NCBI RefSeq assembly: GCF_016903815.1
Contig: NZ_CP069973.1
DNA: 64,000 nt
DNA from: Escherichia coli
GTDB taxonomy: Bacteria > Pseudomonadota > Gammaproteobacteria > Enterobacterales > Enterobacteriaceae
Strand: one strand, 5' to 3'
Every line of letters starts with the position of its first letter. The stretch's first letter is position 1. Of the stretch, positions 1,466-63,920 are shown one piece after another. The notes beneath the pieces were generated by a model. It searched no databases. It was not told the DNA's origin and saw only the letters and a list, made by a program, of their open reading frames with translations. The position numbers and the translations under genes are program-made.

Positions 1466-4400
1466 ATGAGGCACTTTATCTTTCAGGACGAAAAATCACA
1501 TAAATTCTGGGCGGTGGAGCAACAGGGAAACGAGTTGCATATCTGTTGGGGAAAAGTTGGCACCAAAGGGCAAAACCAGGTAAAAAGTTTTGCGGATGCT
1601 GCGGCAGCGGCAAAAGCGGAGCTTAAGCTGATCGCAGAGAAAACGAAAAAAGGCTATGTGGAAAATGCTTTAGCAAACGTGCATATCCCCCCCATCACCA
1701 AAGCCACTCCTGAAGTTGAAACCTCCCCTGAGAGTAAAAACAAACGCCCATGGGTGGCTGATGATGCAGTCATTCCGGTAACTGGCGATATTAATCGATT
1801 TGCTTTTCCTCATCGCTCTCGCCCCAGAGAGATCAATTATCTGTACAAAGATGGCCAAATATGGAAGCGCATCGCGAATAACACCAGGGCATATGACCCC
1901 GACAATAATTACCGCTCTTATCCTGAAAACTGGCAGCTGGCGTTTGCCGAGTTACAAAGGCGAATTCTGAATAATCAACAAACAGGAAGTATACAATCTG
2001 ATGCGGCATTGCTCTGGAATTTATGGAACTCTTACTCTACAGATGAACTGGTCGATGACTTAGTCATTCGCTGTGGTCTGGAAACTACCGTTGAAATCGC
2101 CCTTCTCGCTCTTCAACTCAAATATAAACCAGTAAAAGCCGACGTCACCACCATTATTCCCCCTGATCTCAAAGCAGAATCACTACCGAACTGGCATCAA
2201 CGTCTATGTCATCATCTTTCACTCGCTTCAGAAGATGAGTGGCAACGCTGTGTAGATAAAGTTCTCGCTGCTATTCCCTCGCTATCCCCAGCACGGCAAC
2301 CTTTTGCGGCGTTACTGCTCCCTGAACGCCCGGATATTGCCAATGCTATGGCGCTACGTTATGCAGATCAAAACGTTCCGGCGATGACCTGGTTAAGACT
2401 GGTGGTAACCGATGACGCCGCTCTGACTACAGCAGAAAAATACGACTTCCCACCGTTGTATCATGATTTTCGCGCTTATCTGGCAATGTTGCTGGCAAAT
2501 AATGGGGTGCGCGGTGTAAGCCGGATACTTCTTGAGTTTACGGAAGAGCATTCTGACAATCCCACTTATCTCTTCGAGCGCATCAGCGAGACTGAAGATC
2601 TTGTCAAATGGCTATGGAAAACGAATCACCCGGATGCGATTCAAATTCTGATCCTCGGTGTAATTGGCAAGAAAAAGCACCTGGAATACTTAAGCAAAGC
2701 CTGTCAAAAACATCCCGCTGCGGCTCTTGCCGCTTATGCAACTTTACTGGCAATACATGAAGATGCACAGTGGCGTAAAGCGCTTGTCAAACTGATTACC
2801 GCCACGCCAGATTTAGTCACTGACGTCATTCCCTGGGTTAATGCTAAAGCGGCAGGCATCTTATCTGAATGTCGTACTCAGTTAGTCGCTGAAGAATGTG
2901 AATACGCCACTGCGGATATGTTGCCGGAGCTGTTTGTCGCTCCACCGTGGGTAATAAATAAGAAAACGAATGTAATACCCGTATTTGATTTACCGGTGCT
3001 TCCCATCCCTGCAGTCACTGACATCACGCCAGGAATTACAGAGTTAATCAGTCATACTGACATATCCAGATTCAGTGAAATCGCGCAATATCAGTCATCA
3101 CAGCAAACCTTATTTACCGACCTGCCACTAATTGAAAAAGAAAGCTGGGAGACATCTTTCATTCCTTTTACACCAGAACAACAAATCCTTTGGCAATTAG
3201 GTTTTAATGAATGGCTGCATTGCGAAGATGACTTACATGAAAAAAAATATATACCGCAAAGCGCTGTTGATGCCTTGTTGCGCTTTGATTTTCCAGCACT
3301 AAAAGCTGAGTTTGCGAAATATCACAACAATGCCAACAAAAGCTGGAATCTATCTGCGCTTTGTTACTTACCGGGACAACAGGCGATTTCATTTCTCAAC
3401 CAAATAATCATTGAGGAGCGATATTCAGGTGAGAAAGAGATTCTGGCAGTTTTTGGTAGTACGGCCATTCCTGCGTTTATGACCTGCTTGCAACGAGATC
3501 ATCAACGACTGTGGATATTCACCCTCTTTATTGGGGCCAGTGAACTAGCCTTACCAATGGCGCAGCGGTTACAGAAAAAAATGGCTTACAAGGATGCCAT
3601 TAATTGGCTGGCAAATAACCCGCGCCATGCCGCCGCCGGGCTACTGCCTTTGGCGCTGGGCAAACCGTGCCAAAATCGGGAATATGCCCGCCAGGCATTC
3701 CGCCTGCTAGTGAAATTAAACCAGCGAGAAACGATTGAAGAAATCGGCCGGAGATACAACCAACCTGATGTTTTAGCTGCGCTGGCAACATTGTTCGATA
3801 GCGATCCGCTGGAAGAATATCCCGCTAAAATCGCCCCACTGCCCGGCTTTTATCAGTTCACCTTATGGCGCAGACCACGGCTTAAAAGTAACAACCTGCC
3901 TCTGCCAGATGACGCTATGCGCCACCTGGGCACAATGTTGAGCTTTCCACGCGACATTACCTCCTACGCTGGGCTGGCGACCATCAAAGAGACCTTCACC
4001 CACGAATCACTGGCTGACTTTGGCTGGGATCTCTACACGGCATGGACAGAAGCTGGCGCACCCGCAAAAGAAAACTGGGCATTTACTTCGCTTGGGATTT
4101 TAGGCAATGACGACACCGCACGTAAATTAACCCCGCTTATCCGTGCCTGGCCGGGTGAATCCCAGCATAAACGCGCGGTTTACGGGCTGGATGTATTAGC
4201 TGATATTGGCAGCGATGTTGCGCTAATGCTGCTTAATGGCATCGCGCGAAAAATTAAATTCAAAGCATTACAGGAACATGCCCGCGAGAAAATCAACATA
4301 GTTGCTGAAAACCGTGGGCTGACTATGGCTGAACTGGAAGACCGCCTGGCTCCAGATTTAGGGCTTGATAACAGTGGCTCGCTGATACTGGATTTCGGCC

Positions 4401-24397: not shown

Positions 24398-24420
24398 AAG
24401 GGCGCAGACGTCGCGCCCTT
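24398..24420 (-). terminator. Candidate terminator downstream of bglX
   Basis: agggcgc-agacgtc-gcgccct hairpin. Confidence 0.5.
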
Positions 24421-56377: not shown

Positions 56378-57466
56378 ATGAACAACCGGGAGAAGGAGAT
56401 CCTTGCAATTTTACGGCGTAACCCGCTGATTCAGCAGAACGAAATTGCGGATATGCTGCAAATCAGCCGTTCGCGCGTTGCGGCGCATATTATGGATTTA
56501 ATGCGCAAAGGCCGGATTAAAGGCAAAGGTTACATTCTCACCGAGCAGGAATACTGCGTAGTGGTGGGGACAATCAATATGGATATTCGCGGGATGGCGG
56601 ATATCCGTTACCCGCAAGCGGCTTCTCATCCCGGTACCATTCATTGCTCGGCAGGCGGCGTTGGACGCAATATCGCCCACAATCTGGCGCTGTTAGGCCG
56701 CGACGTCCATTTGCTTTCAGTGATTGGCGATGACTTTTATGGCGAAATGCTCCTGGAAGAAACGCGCCGCGCCGGCGTGAATGTCTCCGGCTGCGTTCGT
56801 TTACATGGCCAAAGCACATCGACGTATCTGGCAATTGCCGATCGAGACGATCAAACCGTGCTGGCGATTAACGATACCCATCTGCTGGATCAGTTGACAC
56901 CGCAACTACTGAACGGGTCGCGCGATTTACTTCGTCATGCGGGCGTGGTACTGGCTGATTGCAACCTGACAGCCGAGGCGCTGGAGTGGGTCTTTACCCT
57001 CGCTGATGAAATCCCGGTGTTTGTCGATACCGTTTCAGAATTCAAAGCGGGCAAAATCAAACACTGGCTGGCGCATATTCACACCCTGAAACCCACTTTA
57101 CCGGAGCTGGAAATTTTATGGGGACAGGCGATCACCAGCGATGCTGACCGTAATGCCGCAGTGAATGCGTTGCATCAGCAAGGCGTTCAGCAACTGTTTG
57201 TTTATTTGCCCGATGAGTCAGTTTATTGCAGCGAAAAGGATGGAGAGCAATTTTTGCTGACAGCGCCAGCGCATACGACAGTAGACAGTTTTGGTGCTGA
57301 CGATGGTTTTATGGCGGGCCTGGTATATAGCTTTCTGGAGGGAAACAATTTCCGTGACAGCGCCCGTTTTGCGATGGCCTGCGCGGCAATTTCACGCGCC
57401 AGCGGCAGCTTAAACAACCCTACCCTGTCTGCCGATAACGCGCTTTCATTAGTGCCGATGGTGTAA
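56378..57466 (+). CDS. yeiI: Predicted sugar/nucleoside kinase (PfkB family) with N-terminal HTH domain
   Basis: HTH EILAILRRNPLIQQNEIADMLQISRSRVAAHI followed by a ribokinase-like domain (GGVGRNIA; DSFGADDGF); paralogous to the 62979..63920 product. Confidence 0.85.
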   Translation: MNNREKEILAILRRNPLIQQNEIADMLQISRSRVAAHIMDLMRKGRIKGKGYILTEQEYCVVVGTINMDIRGMADIRYPQAASHPGTIHCSAGGVGRNIAHNLALLGRDVHLLSVIGDDFYGEMLLEETRRAGVNVSGCVRLHGQSTSTYLAIADRDDQTVLAINDTHLLDQLTPQLLNGSRDLLRHAGVVLADCNLTAEALEWVFTLADEIPVFVDTVSEFKAGKIKHWLAHIHTLKPTLPELEILWGQAITSDADRNAAVNALHQQGVQQLFVYLPDESVYCSEKDGEQFLLTAPAHTTVDSFGADDGFMAGLVYSFLEGNNFRDSARFAMACAAISRASGSLNNPTLSADNALSLVPMV

Positions 57467-57469
57467 CAA

Positions 57470-57512
57470 TGTTGCCGGATTCGACGCTTGACCGCGTCTT
57501 ATCCGGCTCATA
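57470..57512. repeat. REP-like palindrome after yeiI
   Basis: gccggattcgacgcttgaccgcgtcttatccggc. Confidence 0.45.
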
Positions 57513-57521
57513 ACTCGCGCA

Positions 57522-58772
57522 CTACGCTAAGCCAATAAAGAATCCTGCAATGGTGGCACTCATCAGGTTAGAAAGTGTCGCCGCCGCCAGCGCGCGTAAA
57601 CCAAGCTGGGCGATTTCCGGTGCACGGTGTGGCGCAACCGCAGAAAACGCCCCCACCACCACCCCGATAGAACCAAAGTTAGCGAAACCGCACAACGCGA
57701 AGGAAATAATCGCCACGGTTTTAGCATCCAGAGTGCCAGCTGTTTGCAGATAAGGTGAGAAATTGAGGTAAGCGACAAATTCATTAATCGCCAGTTTCTG
57801 TCCAATCAAACTCCCGGCAAGATTCGCATCACTCCAGTCAACCCCCATCACCCACGCCAGCGGGGCCAGCAGGTAACCTAAAATGGACTCCAGCGAGGCA
57901 TGTTCAAAACCAAACCAGCCGCCAACGCCGCCGATAATACCGTTAATCAACGCAATTATTGCAACAAATGCCATCACCACTGTCGCCACACCTGCGGCGA
58001 TTTTCAGTCCGGTCATAGCCCCTGTAGCGGCGGCTTCAATAATGCTTTTTGGCGGTGTTTCGGTGAAAGAGAGGTTATTAAAGGAAACCTGCGAAGATTC
58101 GGTAGCCGGGCTTAACAGGCGGGCAAACAAGATCCCGCCGGGGATCGCCATTAACGATGCCGCTAGCAGATATTCCACAGGCACGCCCAGTGCGGCGTAA
58201 CCAATCATTGTCGAACCAGCAATCGAGGCCATGCCACTACAAATAGCCGTAAATAATTCATTGCGATTCAGACGATCGATAAAGGGTTTGACGATTGCCG
58301 GAATTTCGTTTTGCCCGAGGAAAATGGTAGTGACCGCGACGAATGACTCGATCTTGCTGATATTTAATGCTTTCTGGAAGATACCGCCGAGAATGCGAAT
58401 TAAGATCCCCATCACACCGATGTAGTAGAGAATACTCACCAGTGCTGTAACGAAGATAATTGCCGGTAATACCCTGAAACCAAAGATAAATCCTGCGCCA
58501 TCAAATAAGGTATCCATTTTCGGTCCGACCAGAGAACCAAAGATAAATGCGCTACCTGCATCGCTGTACGCCATCACTTTATGCACGCCAAAAGCGACTT
58601 TTTCTGCGACCCAACGCCCTGGTGGTAACCAAAGCATAATGCCGCCAATCACGACCTGTAACACTAACGCCGCGCCAACGGTACGCAGGCTGATCTTCTT
58701 CTTGTTTACTGACAGCAAAAACGCAATTGCCAGCAATACCACCATTCCCAGAACACTTCTCATGACATCCAT
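57522..58772 (-). CDS. nupX: NupC-family nucleoside transporter
   Basis: 416 aa; highly similar to the 60709..61959 product. Confidence 0.85.
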   Translation of the reverse strand: MDVMRSVLGMVVLLAIAFLLSVNKKKISLRTVGAALVLQVVIGGIMLWLPPGRWVAEKVAFGVHKVMAYSDAGSAFIFGSLVGPKMDTLFDGAGFIFGFRVLPAIIFVTALVSILYYIGVMGILIRILGGIFQKALNISKIESFVAVTTIFLGQNEIPAIVKPFIDRLNRNELFTAICSGMASIAGSTMIGYAALGVPVEYLLAASLMAIPGGILFARLLSPATESSQVSFNNLSFTETPPKSIIEAAATGAMTGLKIAAGVATVVMAFVAIIALINGIIGGVGGWFGFEHASLESILGYLLAPLAWVMGVDWSDANLAGSLIGQKLAINEFVAYLNFSPYLQTAGTLDAKTVAIISFALCGFANFGSIGVVVGAFSAVAPHRAPEIAQLGLRALAAATLSNLMSATIAGFFIGLA

Positions 58773-58871
58773 AGTTATTATCTCTTCATGTCATTTTGGG
58801 CGACGGCTTTCTGCCCATCAGAAATAGCCGGGCCTGCATCTTGCGATACTGTCCCGGCTTGTTATCAACAC

Positions 58872-59813
58872 TTAATGGGTTTTGATGTAGCCGCGCACGC
58901 ACTCTTCGACTAATCCCCAGAACCAGTCGGTATCAATAGTGATGCCGACTTTGGTATTGGCGGGCTTGCCAAGAACGCCCAGCTCGTCGCAGACGGTACG
59001 CCCATAGCAAGGGCCACTGTTAACGTCCACGTCGACGTACATCTCCTGGGTTTTAATGCCATCAGGGTTAATCAGATAACCGATGCAGGTGGCGTCATGC
59101 ACCGGGCCGCCAGCAAGGCCGTAGTTTTCGAACTGCGTTTTGAGAGTGAAGTTCATGATGTCGCTGAACAGCTCTCCGGCGGGGCCGCCTGCCCTTTCCA
59201 TCCGTGCAATCACGTCCGGGGTGCAAACGGTCTGGTTGGTGAGATCGAGGCCCATCATCACTAATGGAACGCCGGAGGTGAACACCACGCGTGCGGCTTC
59301 CGGGTCAGCAAAGATGTTGAACTCGGCGGATGGCGTAAAGTTGCCAGTACCGTAAGCGCCGCCCATCAGCACAATTTCACGGATTTTCGGCAGGATCGCG
59401 GGTTGCATACGCATTGCCACCGCGATGTTTGAAAGTGGACCAACCGGCACCAGAGTGATATCGCCATCGCTTGCCATCAGGGTATCAATGATGTATTTCA
59501 CCGCATGGGTACTTTCTGCCTGGCGGGTCAGCGGCTCGAATACCGGGCCATCCAGTCCTGTTTCACCATGAATATTGTCGGCAACGATTTGTTGACGCAT
59601 AATGGGCTGTGGCATCCCCGCATAAACCGGAACATTAATCTCCAGTTTCTGGCAAACATTCAGGCCATTAATTAATGTTTTATCAAGCGTCTGATTACCC
59701 GCCACAATGGTGATGCCTAATAAATCTATTGCCGGATGTTTCGCTGCCATCATTATGGCAATAGCATCATCATGACCCGGATCACAATCCAGAATAATTT
59801 TTCTCTTTTCCAT
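58872..59813 (-). CDS. rihB: Pyrimidine-specific ribonucleoside hydrolase
   Basis: DCDPGHDDA nucleoside hydrolase motif; 313 aa. Confidence 0.9.
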
Positions 59814-59981
59814 TGTTTATTTCCTCTGTTTCCAGTTGCGTTATTTTTTCTACAGCAAAGAAAATTCGACCGGGCCGATGATTGAATCTTAACAACAGCG
59901 TAAGTATGCTAAATATGAGAAATCTCATAGCGGATAAACATCGTGAAAGAAATCCACAATAATGACCTTAAGCAGCAATTG

Positions 59982-60641
59982 ATGAGTGAATCCGCGTTTA
60001 AGGATTGCTTTTCAACGGATGTTTCAGCCGATACGCGGCTGTTTCATTTTTTAGCGCGTGACTACATTGTGCAGGAAGGGCAACAGCCGTCCTGGCTGTT
60101 TTACCTGACGCGAGGCCGCGCCAGGCTTTACGCCACGCTAGCTAATGGTCGCGTGTCGCTGATCGATTTCTTTGCCGCTCCCTGTTTTATTGGCGAGATT
60201 GAGTTAATCGACAAAGACCATGAACCGCGTGCGGTACAGGCTATTGAAGAGTGTTGGTGCCTTGCGCTCCCTATGAAACATTACCGTCCGCTGTTATTAA
60301 ACGACACGCTATTTTTACGAAAACTCTGCGTTACTTTAAGCCATAAAAATTATCGCAATATTGTTTCTTTAACTCAGAATCAATCATTTCCGTTAGTGAA
60401 TCGCCTGGCAGCTTTTATATTACTCTCGCAGGAAGGTGATCTTTATCACGAAAAGCATACGCAAGCGGCAGAGTATTTAGGCGTTTCTTATCGACATCTT
60501 TTATATGTTCTAGCGCAATTCATTCACGACGGTTTATTAATTAAAAGCAAGAAAGGGTATCTAATTAAAAACAGAAAGCAGTTGTCAGGACTGGCACTGG
60601 AGATGGACCCGGAAAATAAATTCTCAGGGATGATGCAGTAA
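59982..60641 (+). CDS. yeiL: CRP/FNR-family transcriptional regulator
   Basis: 219 aa with C-terminal HTH ([11 protein letters not shown] region). Confidence 0.8.
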
Positions 60642-60708
60642 AAATTATTTGCAATAGAGCGATTGCCGGATGTGACGCTAAATAAGCGCGTACATCCGGC
60701 AATGAAAC

Positions 60709-61959
60709 TCAAGCTAAACCAATAAAGAACCCGGCAATGGTCGCGCTCATCAGGTTGGAAAGCGTTGCTGCTGCCAGCGCCCGTAAACCAAGCTGGGCGA
60801 TTTCCGGTGCGCGTTTAGGCGAAATAGCCGAAAATGCGCCAACGACAACACCGATAGAACCAAAGTTAGCAAAACCACAAAGCGCAAAGGAGATAATCGC
60901 AATGGTTTTCACTTCCAGCGTGCCGCCCGTTTGCAGGTATGGGGAGAAACTCAGGTAAGCGACGAATTCGTTAATCGCCAGTTTCTGCCCAATCAGGCTA
61001 CCCGCAAGATTGGCATCACTCCAGTCCACACCCATGATCCACGCCAGCGGTGCCAGCACATAGCCAAAAATACTTTCCAGAGAGGCATTGGCGAAACCAA
61101 ACCAGCCGCCAATTCCGCCGATAATGCCGTTGATCAGCGCAATAATTGCGACAAACGCCATTACCACCGTCGCTACACCAGCGGCGATTTTCAACCCGGT
61201 CATCGCACCGCTCGCCGCTGCTTCGATAAAGCTTTTTGGCGGCGTTTCGCTGAACGACAGATTTTCAAATGTGACCTGCGAAGGCTCGGTTGCCGGACTA
61301 AGAATACGTGCAAACAAAATACCACCAGGGATCGCCATCAGCGATGCCGCTAACAGGTAGTCAATTGGTACGCCCATTCCGGCATAACCAATCATCATCG
61401 AACCCGCAATGGACGCCATCCCGCAACAAATTGCGGTAAACAGCTCGTTGCGATTCATGCGATCGATAAACGGTTTAACGATCGCCGGGATCTCATTTTG
61501 CCCGAGGAAAATAGTGGTAACCGCAACAAAAGATTCGATTTTGCTGATGTTGAGAGCTTTCTGAAAAATGCTGCCAAGAATGCGGATTAGCAGCCCCATC
61601 ACGCCAATGTAGTACAGCAGGCTGATGAGCGCAGTGACGAAGATAATCGCCGGGAGTACGCGAAAGGCGAAGATAAAACCCGCACCGTCAAAGAGGACAT
61701 CCATTTTCGGCCCGACCAGCGAACCAAAAATGAAGGCGCTACCGGCATCACTGTAAGACATCACTTTATGTACGCCTAATGCCGCCTGCTCTACCGCCCA
61801 TTTTCCTGGTGGAAAATAGAGCATGATGCCGCCAATGGCGATTTGTAGCAGCAACGCGGCTCCAACCGTGCGCAAACTGATGCTCTTTTTATTCACTGAC
61901 AACAAAAATGCTATTGCCAGTAACACCACCATCCCCACAACACTTCTCATTATATCCAT
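60709..61959 (-). CDS. psuT: NupC-family transporter (pseudouridine uptake)
   Basis: 416 aa paralog of nupX; operonic with psuG and psuK. Confidence 0.85.
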   Translation of the reverse strand: MDIMRSVVGMVVLLAIAFLLSVNKKSISLRTVGAALLLQIAIGGIMLYFPPGKWAVEQAALGVHKVMSYSDAGSAFIFGSLVGPKMDVLFDGAGFIFAFRVLPAIIFVTALISLLYYIGVMGLLIRILGSIFQKALNISKIESFVAVTTIFLGQNEIPAIVKPFIDRMNRNELFTAICCGMASIAGSMMIGYAGMGVPIDYLLAASLMAIPGGILFARILSPATEPSQVTFENLSFSETPPKSFIEAAASGAMTGLKIAAGVATVVMAFVAIIALINGIIGGIGGWFGFANASLESIFGYVLAPLAWIMGVDWSDANLAGSLIGQKLAINEFVAYLSFSPYLQTGGTLEVKTIAIISFALCGFANFGSIGVVVGAFSAISPKRAPEIAQLGLRALAAATLSNLMSATIAGFFIGLA

Positions 61960-62052
61960 AATGATTTTCCCTTCATGCCAGTAAACCCGGCGTCAGCGCC
62001 AGGTTTTGGTATGTATGATCAGTACGGGCGACGGCTTTCTGCCCGTCAGAAA

Positions 62053-62991
62053 TTAACCCGCGAGACGCTGGTATTCTTTGGCTATTTCACTCGCCAGGAT
62101 GGCGTTGTTGAACACCAGCTGGATGTTGGATTTCAGGCTGTCACCGCCGGTCAACTCAGCAACGCGCGCCAGCAGGAATGGCGTACTTTCTTTACCAATA
62201 ACACCCTGCGCTTCAGCTTCAGCTACCGCCTGATCGATCGCCGCATTGATAGTGTGTTCCGGCATAGCAAACTGTTCCGGGATCGGGTTCGCTACCACGA
62301 GGCCACCGTTCAGCCCGCTTTGCCATTTCACCGCCATTGCACGGGCAATTTCGCTGGCGCTGTCGAGACGAATGCTCACGTCAAACGGGCTGGTGCGGCA
62401 GAAAAACGCAGGCAGCGCTTTGGTCTGATAGCCAATTAGCGGTACACCGAAAGTTTCTAAATACTCAGTGGTTAATCCTAAATCGAGAATAGATTTCGCC
62501 CCGGCACAAACAACGGTGACATTAGTATTTGCCAGCTCTTGCAAATCGGCAGAAATATCGAAGGTATGTTCCGCCCCGCGATGCACACCACCAATTCCCC
62601 CGGTGGCAAATACTTTAATTCCGGCAAGCGCCGCAATAATCATCGTTGAAGCAACGGTAGTTGCGCCATTTTTTCCGGCGGCAACAACAAAAGGTAAATC
62701 GCGACGACTAACTTTGGTCACGTTATGCCCTTCACGACCCAGCAATTCAATTTCTTCTTTGCTTAAACCCACTTTCATCACGCCGCCAATAATGGCGATA
62801 GTGGCAGGTACAGCGCCCTGTTTACGAATAGTTTCTTCAACTTCAATTGCGGTCTGGGCATTTTGTGGGAACGGCATCCCGTGAGAAATAATGGTCGATT
62901 CCAGCGCCACAACCGGTTTTTTGTTTTTTAAAGCGTCCTGCACTTCCGGGGAAATTTGTAATAATTCAGGGGGAATTTTTAATTCAGACAT
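62053..62991 (-). CDS. psuG: Pseudouridine-5'-phosphate glycosidase
   Basis: 312 aa, MSELKIPPELLQISPEV. Confidence 0.9.
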   Translation of the reverse strand: MSELKIPPELLQISPEVQDALKNKKPVVALESTIISHGMPFPQNAQTAIEVEETIRKQGAVPATIAIIGGVMKVGLSKEEIELLGREGHNVTKVSRRDLPFVVAAGKNGATTVASTMIIAALAGIKVFATGGIGGVHRGAEHTFDISADLQELANTNVTVVCAGAKSILDLGLTTEYLETFGVPLIGYQTKALPAFFCRTSPFDVSIRLDSASEIARAMAVKWQSGLNGGLVVANPIPEQFAMPEHTINAAIDQAVAEAEAQGVIGKESTPFLLARVAELTGGDSLKSNIQLVFNNAILASEIAKEYQRLAG

Positions 62992-63920
62992 TCGGCGTTC
63001 TCCACTAACGATATAACGTTGGCAATCGATAAATCGGGGTTATTGGTGTATTCACAGGAGAGCGCCATTGACGAACATCCCTGTGCGAAACGAACAGATT
63101 CGGCAAACGGCATTCCGTCTACCCAACACGAAGCAAGTCCCGCCATCATGGCATCGCCCGCTCCGGTAACATTAATGACATTGGTTTTGATCGGCGCAGA
63201 CCAACCACTTTCACCGCTGATATCACTGTAATAAACGCCGTCGCCGCCCATGCTCAATACCAGTCGGTTCAGGCCATGTTGATGGAACCAGGCAGCAACT
63301 ATTGCCACATCTTCACGCCCTGACAAAGCAATCCCACTCAGGGTTTCCGCTTCAAGGCGGTTTGGCTTGAGAGTGTGGATTTGATTTAGACGGTCGCGCA
63401 CTTTGACACATTTCCATGCGGAAACCGGATCGACAAATACAGGTACATTGGCGGCATTATCCAGAATCCATGCCAGTGCCTCTTCACTGATATTACAGTC
63501 TGCGACAATGACCTTTGCCCTCTGAATAAATTCACCGTGCTGTGCGAGATATTCAGCTGTAATAGCGTTGCTAATATTCATGTCATTTATAGCAACCAGC
63601 ATTTCACCGGTATTATCGAGTAATGATAAATAGCTTGACGTATTTTCTCCCGGCACAATCAGGCATTTATCGACATAAACGCCAGATTGATTGGTTTGCG
63701 TTAGCAGCGATTGACCATAAAAGTCACTGCCTACTGCGCTCATTAGCCAGGCTTTGTTCCCCAGCAACGCCAGATTTTGTGCAATATTGCGCCCGACTCC
63801 ACCAGGCGTAAATTTTATTTTACCTGGATTTGAATCCGCATAATTTAATGATTCATGTGAATATCCGGCGACATCAATATTCGCCGAACCTATAATTACG
63901 ACATAATCCTTTTCGCGCAT
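62979..63920 (-). CDS. psuK: Pseudouridine kinase (PfkB family)
   Basis: 313 aa, GGVGRNIA; TGAGDAMMAG motifs. Confidence 0.9.
   Translation of the reverse strand: MREKDYVVIIGSANIDVAGYSHESLNYADSNPGKIKFTPGGVGRNIAQNLALLGNKAWLMSAVGSDFYGQSLLTQTNQSGVYVDKCLIVPGENTSSYLSLLDNTGEMLVAINDMNISNAITAEYLAQHGEFIQRAKVIVADCNISEEALAWILDNAANVPVFVDPVSAWKCVKVRDRLNQIHTLKPNRLEAETLSGIALSGREDVAIVAAWFHQHGLNRLVLSMGGDGVYYSDISGESGWSAPIKTNVINVTGAGDAMMAGLASCWVDGMPFAESVRFAQGCSSMALSCEYTNNPDLSIANVISLVENAECLN

Follow-up and report, generated by a model that had tools for sequence, protein, structure and literature searches.

A covarying stem-loop common to the leaders of the NupX-type transporter genes nupX and psuT in Escherichia coli and its relatives

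The leaders of nupX and psuT, two paralogous transporter genes of Escherichia coli, have in common a 23-nt stem-loop, here called P1, that is conserved across enterobacterial genera with covarying arms. Judged from comparative sequence evidence, P1 appears to be a genuine and previously undescribed, covariation-supported element of both NupX-type transporter leaders, and it is very probably a hairpin of the sense-strand RNA that is under selection. No Rfam 15 match was obtained at either copy even at E<=10, and no description of the nupX or psuT leaders was found in the literature searched. The window (the whole stretch of DNA analysed, 64,000 nt) comes from the E. coli chromosome, and nupX, rihB, psuT, psuG and psuK all lie on its minus strand. 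The two copies of P1 are located in the intercistronic gaps leading from rihB to nupX and from psuG to psuT, in neither of which is any feature annotated in K-12.

The 28-nt repeat and the P1 stem-loop

The genes concerned are arranged as follows.

57522-58772, minus strand: nupX
58872-59813, minus strand: rihB
60709-61959, minus strand: psuT
62053-62991, minus strand: psuG
62979-63920, minus strand: psuK
59943-60641, plus strand: yeiL, between the rihB-nupX and psuKG-psuT groups
56378-57466, plus strand: yeiI, encoding a kinase of the PfkB type whose N-terminal domain is a winged helix; convergent to the transporter gene

NupX and PsuT share 88% identity at the protein level and 79% at the DNA level, and their fourfold-degenerate sites are 46% identical, which is near saturation. 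Weak transport of uridine and cytidine has been reported for NupX, PsuT being inactive on the nucleosides tested (PMC11241209). The yeiI gene occupies the same position in most genera (loci L083, L084, L088, L089, L099 and L100) and is a candidate regulator of these operons. Downstream of the nupX and psuT stop codons are REP-like palindromes (57460-57508 and about 60660-60705, respectively); the first gives weak matches to naRNA4 on both strands, at 23 bits well below the gathering score of 59.5.

Each of the two gaps holds one copy of a 28-nt sequence, GGGCGACGGCTTTCTGCCC[A/G]TCAGAAAT when read on the plus strand and AUUUCUGA[C/U]GGGCAGAAAGCCGUCGCCC in the sense of the mRNA, and the copies are identical at 27 of the 28 bases. 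P1 overlaps this repeat in both leaders.

58798-58825, minus strand: 28-nt motif, nupX copy
62026-62053, minus strand: 28-nt motif, psuT copy, made up of a 7-nt 5' flank (AUUUCUG) and P1 minus its last two bases
58796..58818, minus strand: P1 of the nupX leader, AUGGGC-AGAAAGCCGUC-GCCCAA; covariance model score 50 bits
62024..62046, minus strand: P1 of the psuT leader, ACGGGC-AGAAAGCCGUC-GCCCGU; covariance model score 54 bits

No further site with three or fewer mismatches to the 28-mer is present in the window, none of 100 shuffles of the sequence produced a match, and the binomial probability of 27 matches in 28 at a neutral identity of 46% is about 1e-8. The motif that the initial annotation described upstream of both genes is therefore real and far beyond chance, and a genome-wide search at E<=10 confirmed that it is a two-copy element (a median of exactly two copies per E. 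coli genome; 10,814 places in 5,424 genomes). That count also led us to reject a REP/BIME or other dispersed repeat. The positions first given for the motif, 58806-58833 and 62014-62042, are off by 8 and 12 nt, and instead of lying 30-55 bp before both start codons it spans -26..-53 from the nupX ATG and -67..-94 from the psuT ATG. On the upstream side, the nupX copy is 53 nt past the rihB stop codon, whereas the first base of the psuT copy is the last A of the psuG TAA, and P1 begins 6 nt past that stop. Antisense open reading frames over the motif (plus strand, 58639-58827 and 61975-62439) were rejected as coding sequence, since the substitutions keep pairing and indels abound; both cover the motif in the same frame (GRRLSA[H/R]QK), which we regard as spurious.

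In its full form P1 consists of a 6-bp G+C-rich stem (ACGGGC/GCCCGU), a one-base bulge (L1), a further pair (L2-L11) and an 8-nt apical loop, where L1 to L11 number the interval between the arms. Its general form is NN[G/A]GGC / GCC[C/U]NN around exactly 11 nt, a length that is constant in 21 sequences, and within the interval the G at L2, L6 and L9 and the U at L10 hardly change from genus to genus. The predicted stem energy is -8 to -12 kcal/mol. In the common E. coli nupX leader, including that of this strain and of K-12, the stem has only five pairs plus an outer A.A mismatch, and a divergent E. coli (L002) has the full 6 bp (GCCCAU). P1 lies 23 to about 65 nt from the ATG and is followed by GUACUGAU or AAAAUGAC, with no U-tract. 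A seventh outer pair and an inner pair L3-L10 were considered and are unsupported by the alignment; no consistent pseudoknot partner for the loop was found in the linker or the upstream flank among 17 leaders, and no GGA (CsrA-type) motif is present. Elsewhere in the window, AAGGGC-N11-GCCCUU at 24398-24420 has the stem and loop-length geometry of P1 on both strands; its sequence is unrelated, and the covariance model gave no match there even at E<=10.

Covariation, strand and the choice of stem

Orthologous loci were taken from one-genome-per-species contigs, from protein clusters with their encoding contigs and from E. coli variants, the close orthologues in the one-genome-per-species set being 86-98% identical to NupX. 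P1 is present in all close-orthologue leaders except that of psuT in Entomohabitans, and these leaders span eight or nine enterobacterial genera, represented by Escherichia coli, E. albertii, three Citrobacter species, Leclercia and Enterobacter-labelled genomes, Superficieibacter, Buttiauxella, Klebsiella michiganensis, K. spallanzanii, Kluyvera and Entomohabitans. It is thus the hairpin that is kept in other enterobacteria; identity over the full 28 nt is limited to Escherichia. P1 is absent upstream of homologues of about 50% identity and of the 72% homologue in Klebsiella sp. BIGb0407.

Over 21 sequences, distinct but related to one another, the seven pairs of P1 show standard pairing in 95-96% of cells, and four of the seven have changed on both sides. 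The following pair types were recorded.

Outermost pair: A-U, G-C and G.U
Second pair: C-G, U-A and U.G
Third pair: G-C and A-U
Pair L2-L11: G-C, A-U and G.U

The alignment points to at least four independent compensatory events, spread over different clades and over nupX as well as psuT leaders. In 500 column shuffles the observed covariation score was never reached, although relatedness alone can beat this control; when the 3' partners were shifted by 1-3 columns, pairing was 32-54%. RNAalifold predicted P1 unguided, and a covariance model built from the alignment scored the true copies at 40-54 bits, with no other match above 17 bits in 560 kb that include the window and 72 distant-homologue loci.

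A few leaders depart from this pattern. In the psuG-psuT gap of Entomohabitans teleogrylli (L100, about 3108-3150), P1 has been swapped for an unrelated, perfect 14-bp hairpin (GCGCUGUUCCCGG-ACGGAUUA-CCGGGAAACAGCGC) that immediately precedes the conserved linker. The loop of one Leclercia-type nupX leader is changed at L1, L2, L6 and L7 such that it pairs with itself, giving an 11-bp stem of -17 kcal/mol. In E. coli strains 13C1065T and Ecol_542 (L094 and L096) rihB or nupX is annotated as a truncated pseudogene and the motif is mutated inside, by a C deletion in the 3' arm in one case and by a C>A change in the flank together with an A>G change in the loop in the other; the intact-locus E. 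coli nupX leaders sampled vary only around the motif. Mutation of the motif alongside pseudogenes would fit relaxed selection, which in two strains is anecdotal.

The initial annotation had suggested a retained 5'-leader RNA structure with a gacgg/ccgtc stem, and while an RNA structure is supported, its stem is a different one. The gacgg/ccgtc hairpin is thermodynamically competitive in E. coli and is the minimum-free-energy choice for the psuT leader in a longer context, but among 18 leaders only 69% of its cells are paired, its central pair is broken in 13 of the 18 sequences, and there is no compensatory change or any excess over shuffled controls. The covarying stem ACGGGC/GCCCGU encloses ccgtc as loop sequence. 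That gacgg/ccgtc is the functional fold we consider scarcely credible.

Several variants indicate on which strand, and in which nucleic acid, the structure forms. Leaders of E. coli, E. albertii and Kluyvera include variants whose G.U or U.G pairs can form on the gene-sense strand alone: GCGGGC/GCCCGU in E. coli psuT, GUGGGC/GCCCGU in the psuT leader of about 1,040 E. coli genomes as well as in E. albertii, and AUGGGC/GCCCGU in Kluyvera nupX. Kluyvera psuT is a contrary case, its outer A.C mismatch being a wobble on the antisense strand. On balance, the sense-only G.U variants and the complementary changes in the arms argue for an mRNA structure rather than a DNA palindrome read by a protein.

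The same evidence bears on the operator that the initial annotation had offered as an option, for which a dimeric regulator (YeiL, CytR/CRP or YeiI) would control an internal transporter promoter. The inverted repeat ACGGGC-N11-GCCCGT, joined in E. coli by TTTCTG-N5-CAGAAA, would suit such a regulator, yeiL lies between both operons, and a low-resolution RpoS-holoenzyme SELEX peak falls inside psuG (PMC5493296). The motif is intercistronic, however, and no recognisable promoter accompanies it, a promoter scan having called nothing near either copy; its arms differ between the paralogs of one genome and yet stay complementary; and variants that pair only through G.U would be meaningless for double-stranded DNA. 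The second palindrome, TTTCTG/CAGAAA, is confined to Escherichia, and only 55% of its cells are paired. We therefore regard a DNA operator as highly improbable. No YeiL operator sequence was found in the literature searched, and the -10-like strings TAATTT and TATTTC were rejected as an internal promoter, being weak and unconserved outside Escherichia and Citrobacter.

The remainder of the leader and the identity of the Escherichia copies

A whole-leader MAFFT alignment shows that the nupX and psuT leaders are homologous from P1 down to the start codon, apart from a gap of 41 columns in the E. coli nupX leader. The view that the sequences flanking the motif are otherwise different is thus right for the upstream side, where unrelated genes end, and wrong for the downstream side. 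The further elements of the leaders are listed below.

62008..62023, minus strand: linker between P1 and P2 in psuT, ACUGAUCAUACAUACC; C/A-rich and G-poor, homologous to AUCAGAC(AUACC) elsewhere
61983..62006 (extended 61974-62013), minus strand: P2 of the psuT-type leader, AAACCUGGCG-CUGA-CGCCGGGUUU
61957..61977, minus strand: Shine-Dalgarno/start region of psuT, CAUGAAGGGAAAAUCAUUAUG; homologous to the nupX region
58770..58790, minus strand: Shine-Dalgarno/start region of nupX, CAUGAAGAGAUAAUAACUAUG
58826..58860, minus strand: long rihB-proximal hairpin, AAGCCGGG..GUAUC-GCAA-GAUGC..CCCGGCU; ends just before the motif

P2, whose stem of 9-10 bp has runs of A and U on its flanks, resembles a terminator, but it has only 3-4 U and the terminator scan did not call it. 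It is found in all psuT-type leaders and in the nupX leader of Klebsiella spallanzanii, is remodelled and lacks the U run in Entomohabitans, and is deleted in most nupX leaders, including that of E. coli. Its survival in K. spallanzanii nupX suggests that the ancestral leader had both hairpins, and P2 could attenuate read-through into psuT. The Shine-Dalgarno region common to the leaders reads CUGGCAUGAAGRG; the upstream AUG in CAUGAAG was rejected as a conserved small open reading frame, since it is AUC or missing in several genera. Between P1 and the Shine-Dalgarno region of nupX, divergent E. coli (L002, 2463-2500) has AUAACGGGAUCAGACCUGA, 13 nt longer than the common AAAAUGA form (58773-58797), and the common form appears from this comparison to be a lineage-specific deletion that has also weakened the outer pair of P1.

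The rihB-proximal hairpin is imperfect, has a GCAA tetraloop, with the AUUUCU of the motif as a U-rich tail, and has no homologue in the psuT leader. It is polymorphic within E. coli, mostly at bulge and loop positions, and could act as a weak terminator of rihB or as a 3' stabiliser. That nupX leaders keep P1 even where a separate hairpin follows rihB suggests that P1 is tied to the downstream cistron. We infer that P1 was inherited from a common ancestral leader and has been kept by selection in both copies, and the contrast drawn in the initial annotation between a retained element and duplication carry-over is then a false choice, the hairpin being both.

The identity of the two E. coli copies goes further than the pairing of P1 demands. 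Twelve of the 28 positions vary freely across genera, namely the 7-nt 5' flank and L1, L3, L4, L5 and L8, and the E. coli paralogs are identical at all 12, for which the chance is about 3e-6 to 1e-4. The paralogs of a Leclercia-type genome match at two of the five free loop positions, and those of Kluyvera at two of the five loop and one of the seven flank positions. The E. coli nupX leader carries the loop AGAAAGCCGUC and the flank AUUUCUG, which are of the Escherichia/Citrobacter psuT type, whereas other nupX leaders have a loop of the type AGU[A/C/G]AGCGGUC. The simplest account is that the 28-nt identity may stem from gene conversion over a short tract, with the psuT leader as donor and the nupX leader as recipient. 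The conversion tract would be patchy, as stem position 2 in nupX keeps the nupX-type U-A pair.

An alternative possibility to conversion is lineage-specific selection for an alternative hairpin that only Escherichia can form. In nupX this would be CGGCU-AU-UUCUG-AUGGG-CAGAA-AGCCG (58804-58830, minus strand), with GGUU-AAU-UUCUG..CAGAA-AGCC (62033-62058, minus strand) as its analogue in psuT. Both exclude P1, and the nupX one also excludes the rihB hairpin; they may explain the identity of the paralogs beyond P1. The inner UUUCUG-N5-CAGAAA was rejected as a conserved fold, as it occurs only in Escherichia and is 55% paired overall, and is a possible local alternative fold.

The motif might also have no function of its own, being either a leftover of the duplication or the product of recent conversion between paralogs. 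The homology of the leaders from the motif to the ATG accords with this, as does the identity of the E. coli copies at positions free in other genera. Conversion within E. coli, however, can give neither the P1 of species with a single paralog (Citrobacter, K. michiganensis and K. spallanzanii) nor compensatory substitutions across genera; in addition, the paralogs have reached saturation at their neutral sites, and indels abound in the linker around the motif. A functionless motif is in our judgement very unlikely.

Possible roles of P1

The reading that we tentatively favour, as plausible though well short of firm, is a structural role in cis, in mRNA stability, in processing or in insulation of the transporter cistron. 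P1 would work chiefly by its fold, marking a boundary in the polycistronic mRNA or stabilising its transporter segment. In E. coli mRNA decay, a 5'-terminal stem-loop protects against RNase E, and an intercistronic stem-loop blocks 3' exonucleases and so leads to differential expression within operons. In the likeliest version P1 would form the 5' end of a processed transporter mRNA and protect it, a specific form that is possible yet doubtful when taken alone; alternatively, it would block 3' exonucleases and the loading of Rho in the untranslated gap. By either route, expression of the transporter would be set separately from that of the upstream enzymes (rihB or psuG). The hairpin swap in Entomohabitans and the self-paired loop of the Leclercia-type leader suggest that what is needed here is a hairpin, rather than a sequence to be read. 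A search of papers and data sets turned up neither transcript ends nor sRNA partners at P1: a 3'-end atlas has no entry in the two gaps, the only one recorded being antisense and within nupX (PMC7815308), and neither gene appears in a SMRT-Cappable-seq supplement; these genes are poorly expressed in laboratory culture.

A structural role explains neither why the interval between the arms is always 11 nt nor why the loop keeps its G, G and GU, and recognition by a factor is on this account the main rival. P1 would then be bound by a trans-acting RNA-binding protein or a base-pairing RNA, which would co-regulate both pyrimidine-nucleoside transporter cistrons post-transcriptionally. The near invariance of L2, L6, L9 and L10 while the outer stem pairs covary fits such recognition, as do the identical loops of the two E. 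coli copies. It fits poorly with the nupX lineage in which L2 and L6 are among the changed bases and the loop is closed into stem, with the unrelated hairpin that stands in place of P1 in Entomohabitans psuT, and with the lack of a CsrA-type motif. Nor is there a neighbouring regulator common to both operon types, yeiL accompanying rihB-nupX and yeiI being found beside most loci but not every one. The Hfq CLASH chimeras reported for these genes (CyaR-nupX, CpxQ-nupX and CpxQ-psuT) all lie in coding regions and not in P1, that in psuT at about codons 6-22 (PMC7213987), which suggests an sRNA control of nupX and psuT independent of P1. Taken together, these points make recognition in trans unlikely.

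It is nevertheless of interest to speculate that P1 could be the operator hairpin of a small RNA-level regulon, in which a putative RNA-binding factor reads the 11-nt loop as xGxxxGCsGUx. Such a factor, if it existed, would co-ordinate the uptake side of the operons that scavenge pyrimidine nucleosides (rihB-nupX and psuKG-psuT) separately from their enzyme genes, and the identity of the Escherichia copies would reflect co-evolution with the factor and not gene conversion. We consider a regulon of this kind improbable.

At the level of transcription, P1 might act together with P2 as a pause, attenuation or anti-Rho hairpin, tuning read-through from enzyme to transporter gene. In psuT-type leaders the hairpin lies 6-11 nt after the psuG stop codon, within reach of the terminating ribosome, P2 has its flanking A and U runs, and the C/A-rich, G-poor linker resembles a Rho loading site. 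P1, however, is without a U-tract, and the terminator scan called neither P1 nor P2; an intrinsic terminator was rejected for P1 on these grounds. When the 5' arm of P1 was blocked in silico, mimicking a ribosome halted at the end of psuG, P2 and the start region were unchanged in seven leaders, which argues against an antiterminator-type switch. Most nupX leaders have lost P2 and retain P1, which in nupX leaders is 15-53 nt from the rihB stop. A transcriptional role of this kind seems to us unlikely.

Comparison with known systems places P1 most likely in the familiar class of small cis-acting mRNA hairpins, with no new type of mechanism. Hairpins that affect mRNA stability include the REP stem-loops between malE and malF and the 5' stem-loops of ompA and papA. 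Like these, P1 is G+C-rich, lacks a U-tract, lies in an untranslated operon gap and adjoins a cistron for a membrane protein, and it is the fold and not the sequence that survives replacement. Unlike REP elements it is not dispersed and has no REP consensus, and compared with stability hairpins it has a short stem and is unusual in its constant interval and conserved loop bases.

In the rph-pyrE attenuator, a ribosome at the upstream stop codon can melt the hairpin. P1 of psuT-type leaders resembles the rph-pyrE and pyrBI attenuators in lying a few nucleotides past an upstream stop codon in a pyrimidine-related operon and in being followed by a second hairpin with a short U run. It differs from them in having no U-tract and no pairing competition with P2, in the dispensability of P2 and in its distance from the rihB stop in nupX leaders. 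With the cis-regulatory RNAs and riboswitches of Rfam, P1 has in common a conserved, covarying structure in the leader of a transporter mRNA; at only 23 nt, with no pseudoknot and no expression-platform switch, it is otherwise unlike them. A riboswitch is not supported, there being no consistent pairing of loop with flank and no effect of the state of P1 on P2 or the Shine-Dalgarno region.

Small protein-recognition elements offer a further, superficial comparison, among them the apical loop GGUC of SECIS, which binds SelB, lambda boxB and the RfaH ops element (GGCGGTAGCGTG). P1 is similar to SECIS and boxB in having a short stem with G-U in the loop, and in psuT-type leaders it sits close behind a stop codon in a SECIS-like manner; the sequence AGCGGTCGCCCG has eight of 12 bases in common with ops. 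As the stop codon upstream of P1 is UAA in E. coli and its distance is not fixed in nupX leaders, P1 is not a SECIS. Its loop does not have the size required of boxB, it lacks the T-A-G core of ops, and ops is not known for pairing covariation; these resemblances were accordingly set aside.

The regulation of nupX and psuT is essentially unstudied, and the shared hairpin provides a mutable handle on the level of the transporters relative to that of the enzymes. The pathways concerned are the salvage of pseudouridine and of pyrimidine nucleosides in E. coli, and engineering for pseudouridine production already makes use of these genes. More generally, P1 offers a small and clean case of a leader element that has come through an old duplication of its gene and may since have received a short conversion tract.
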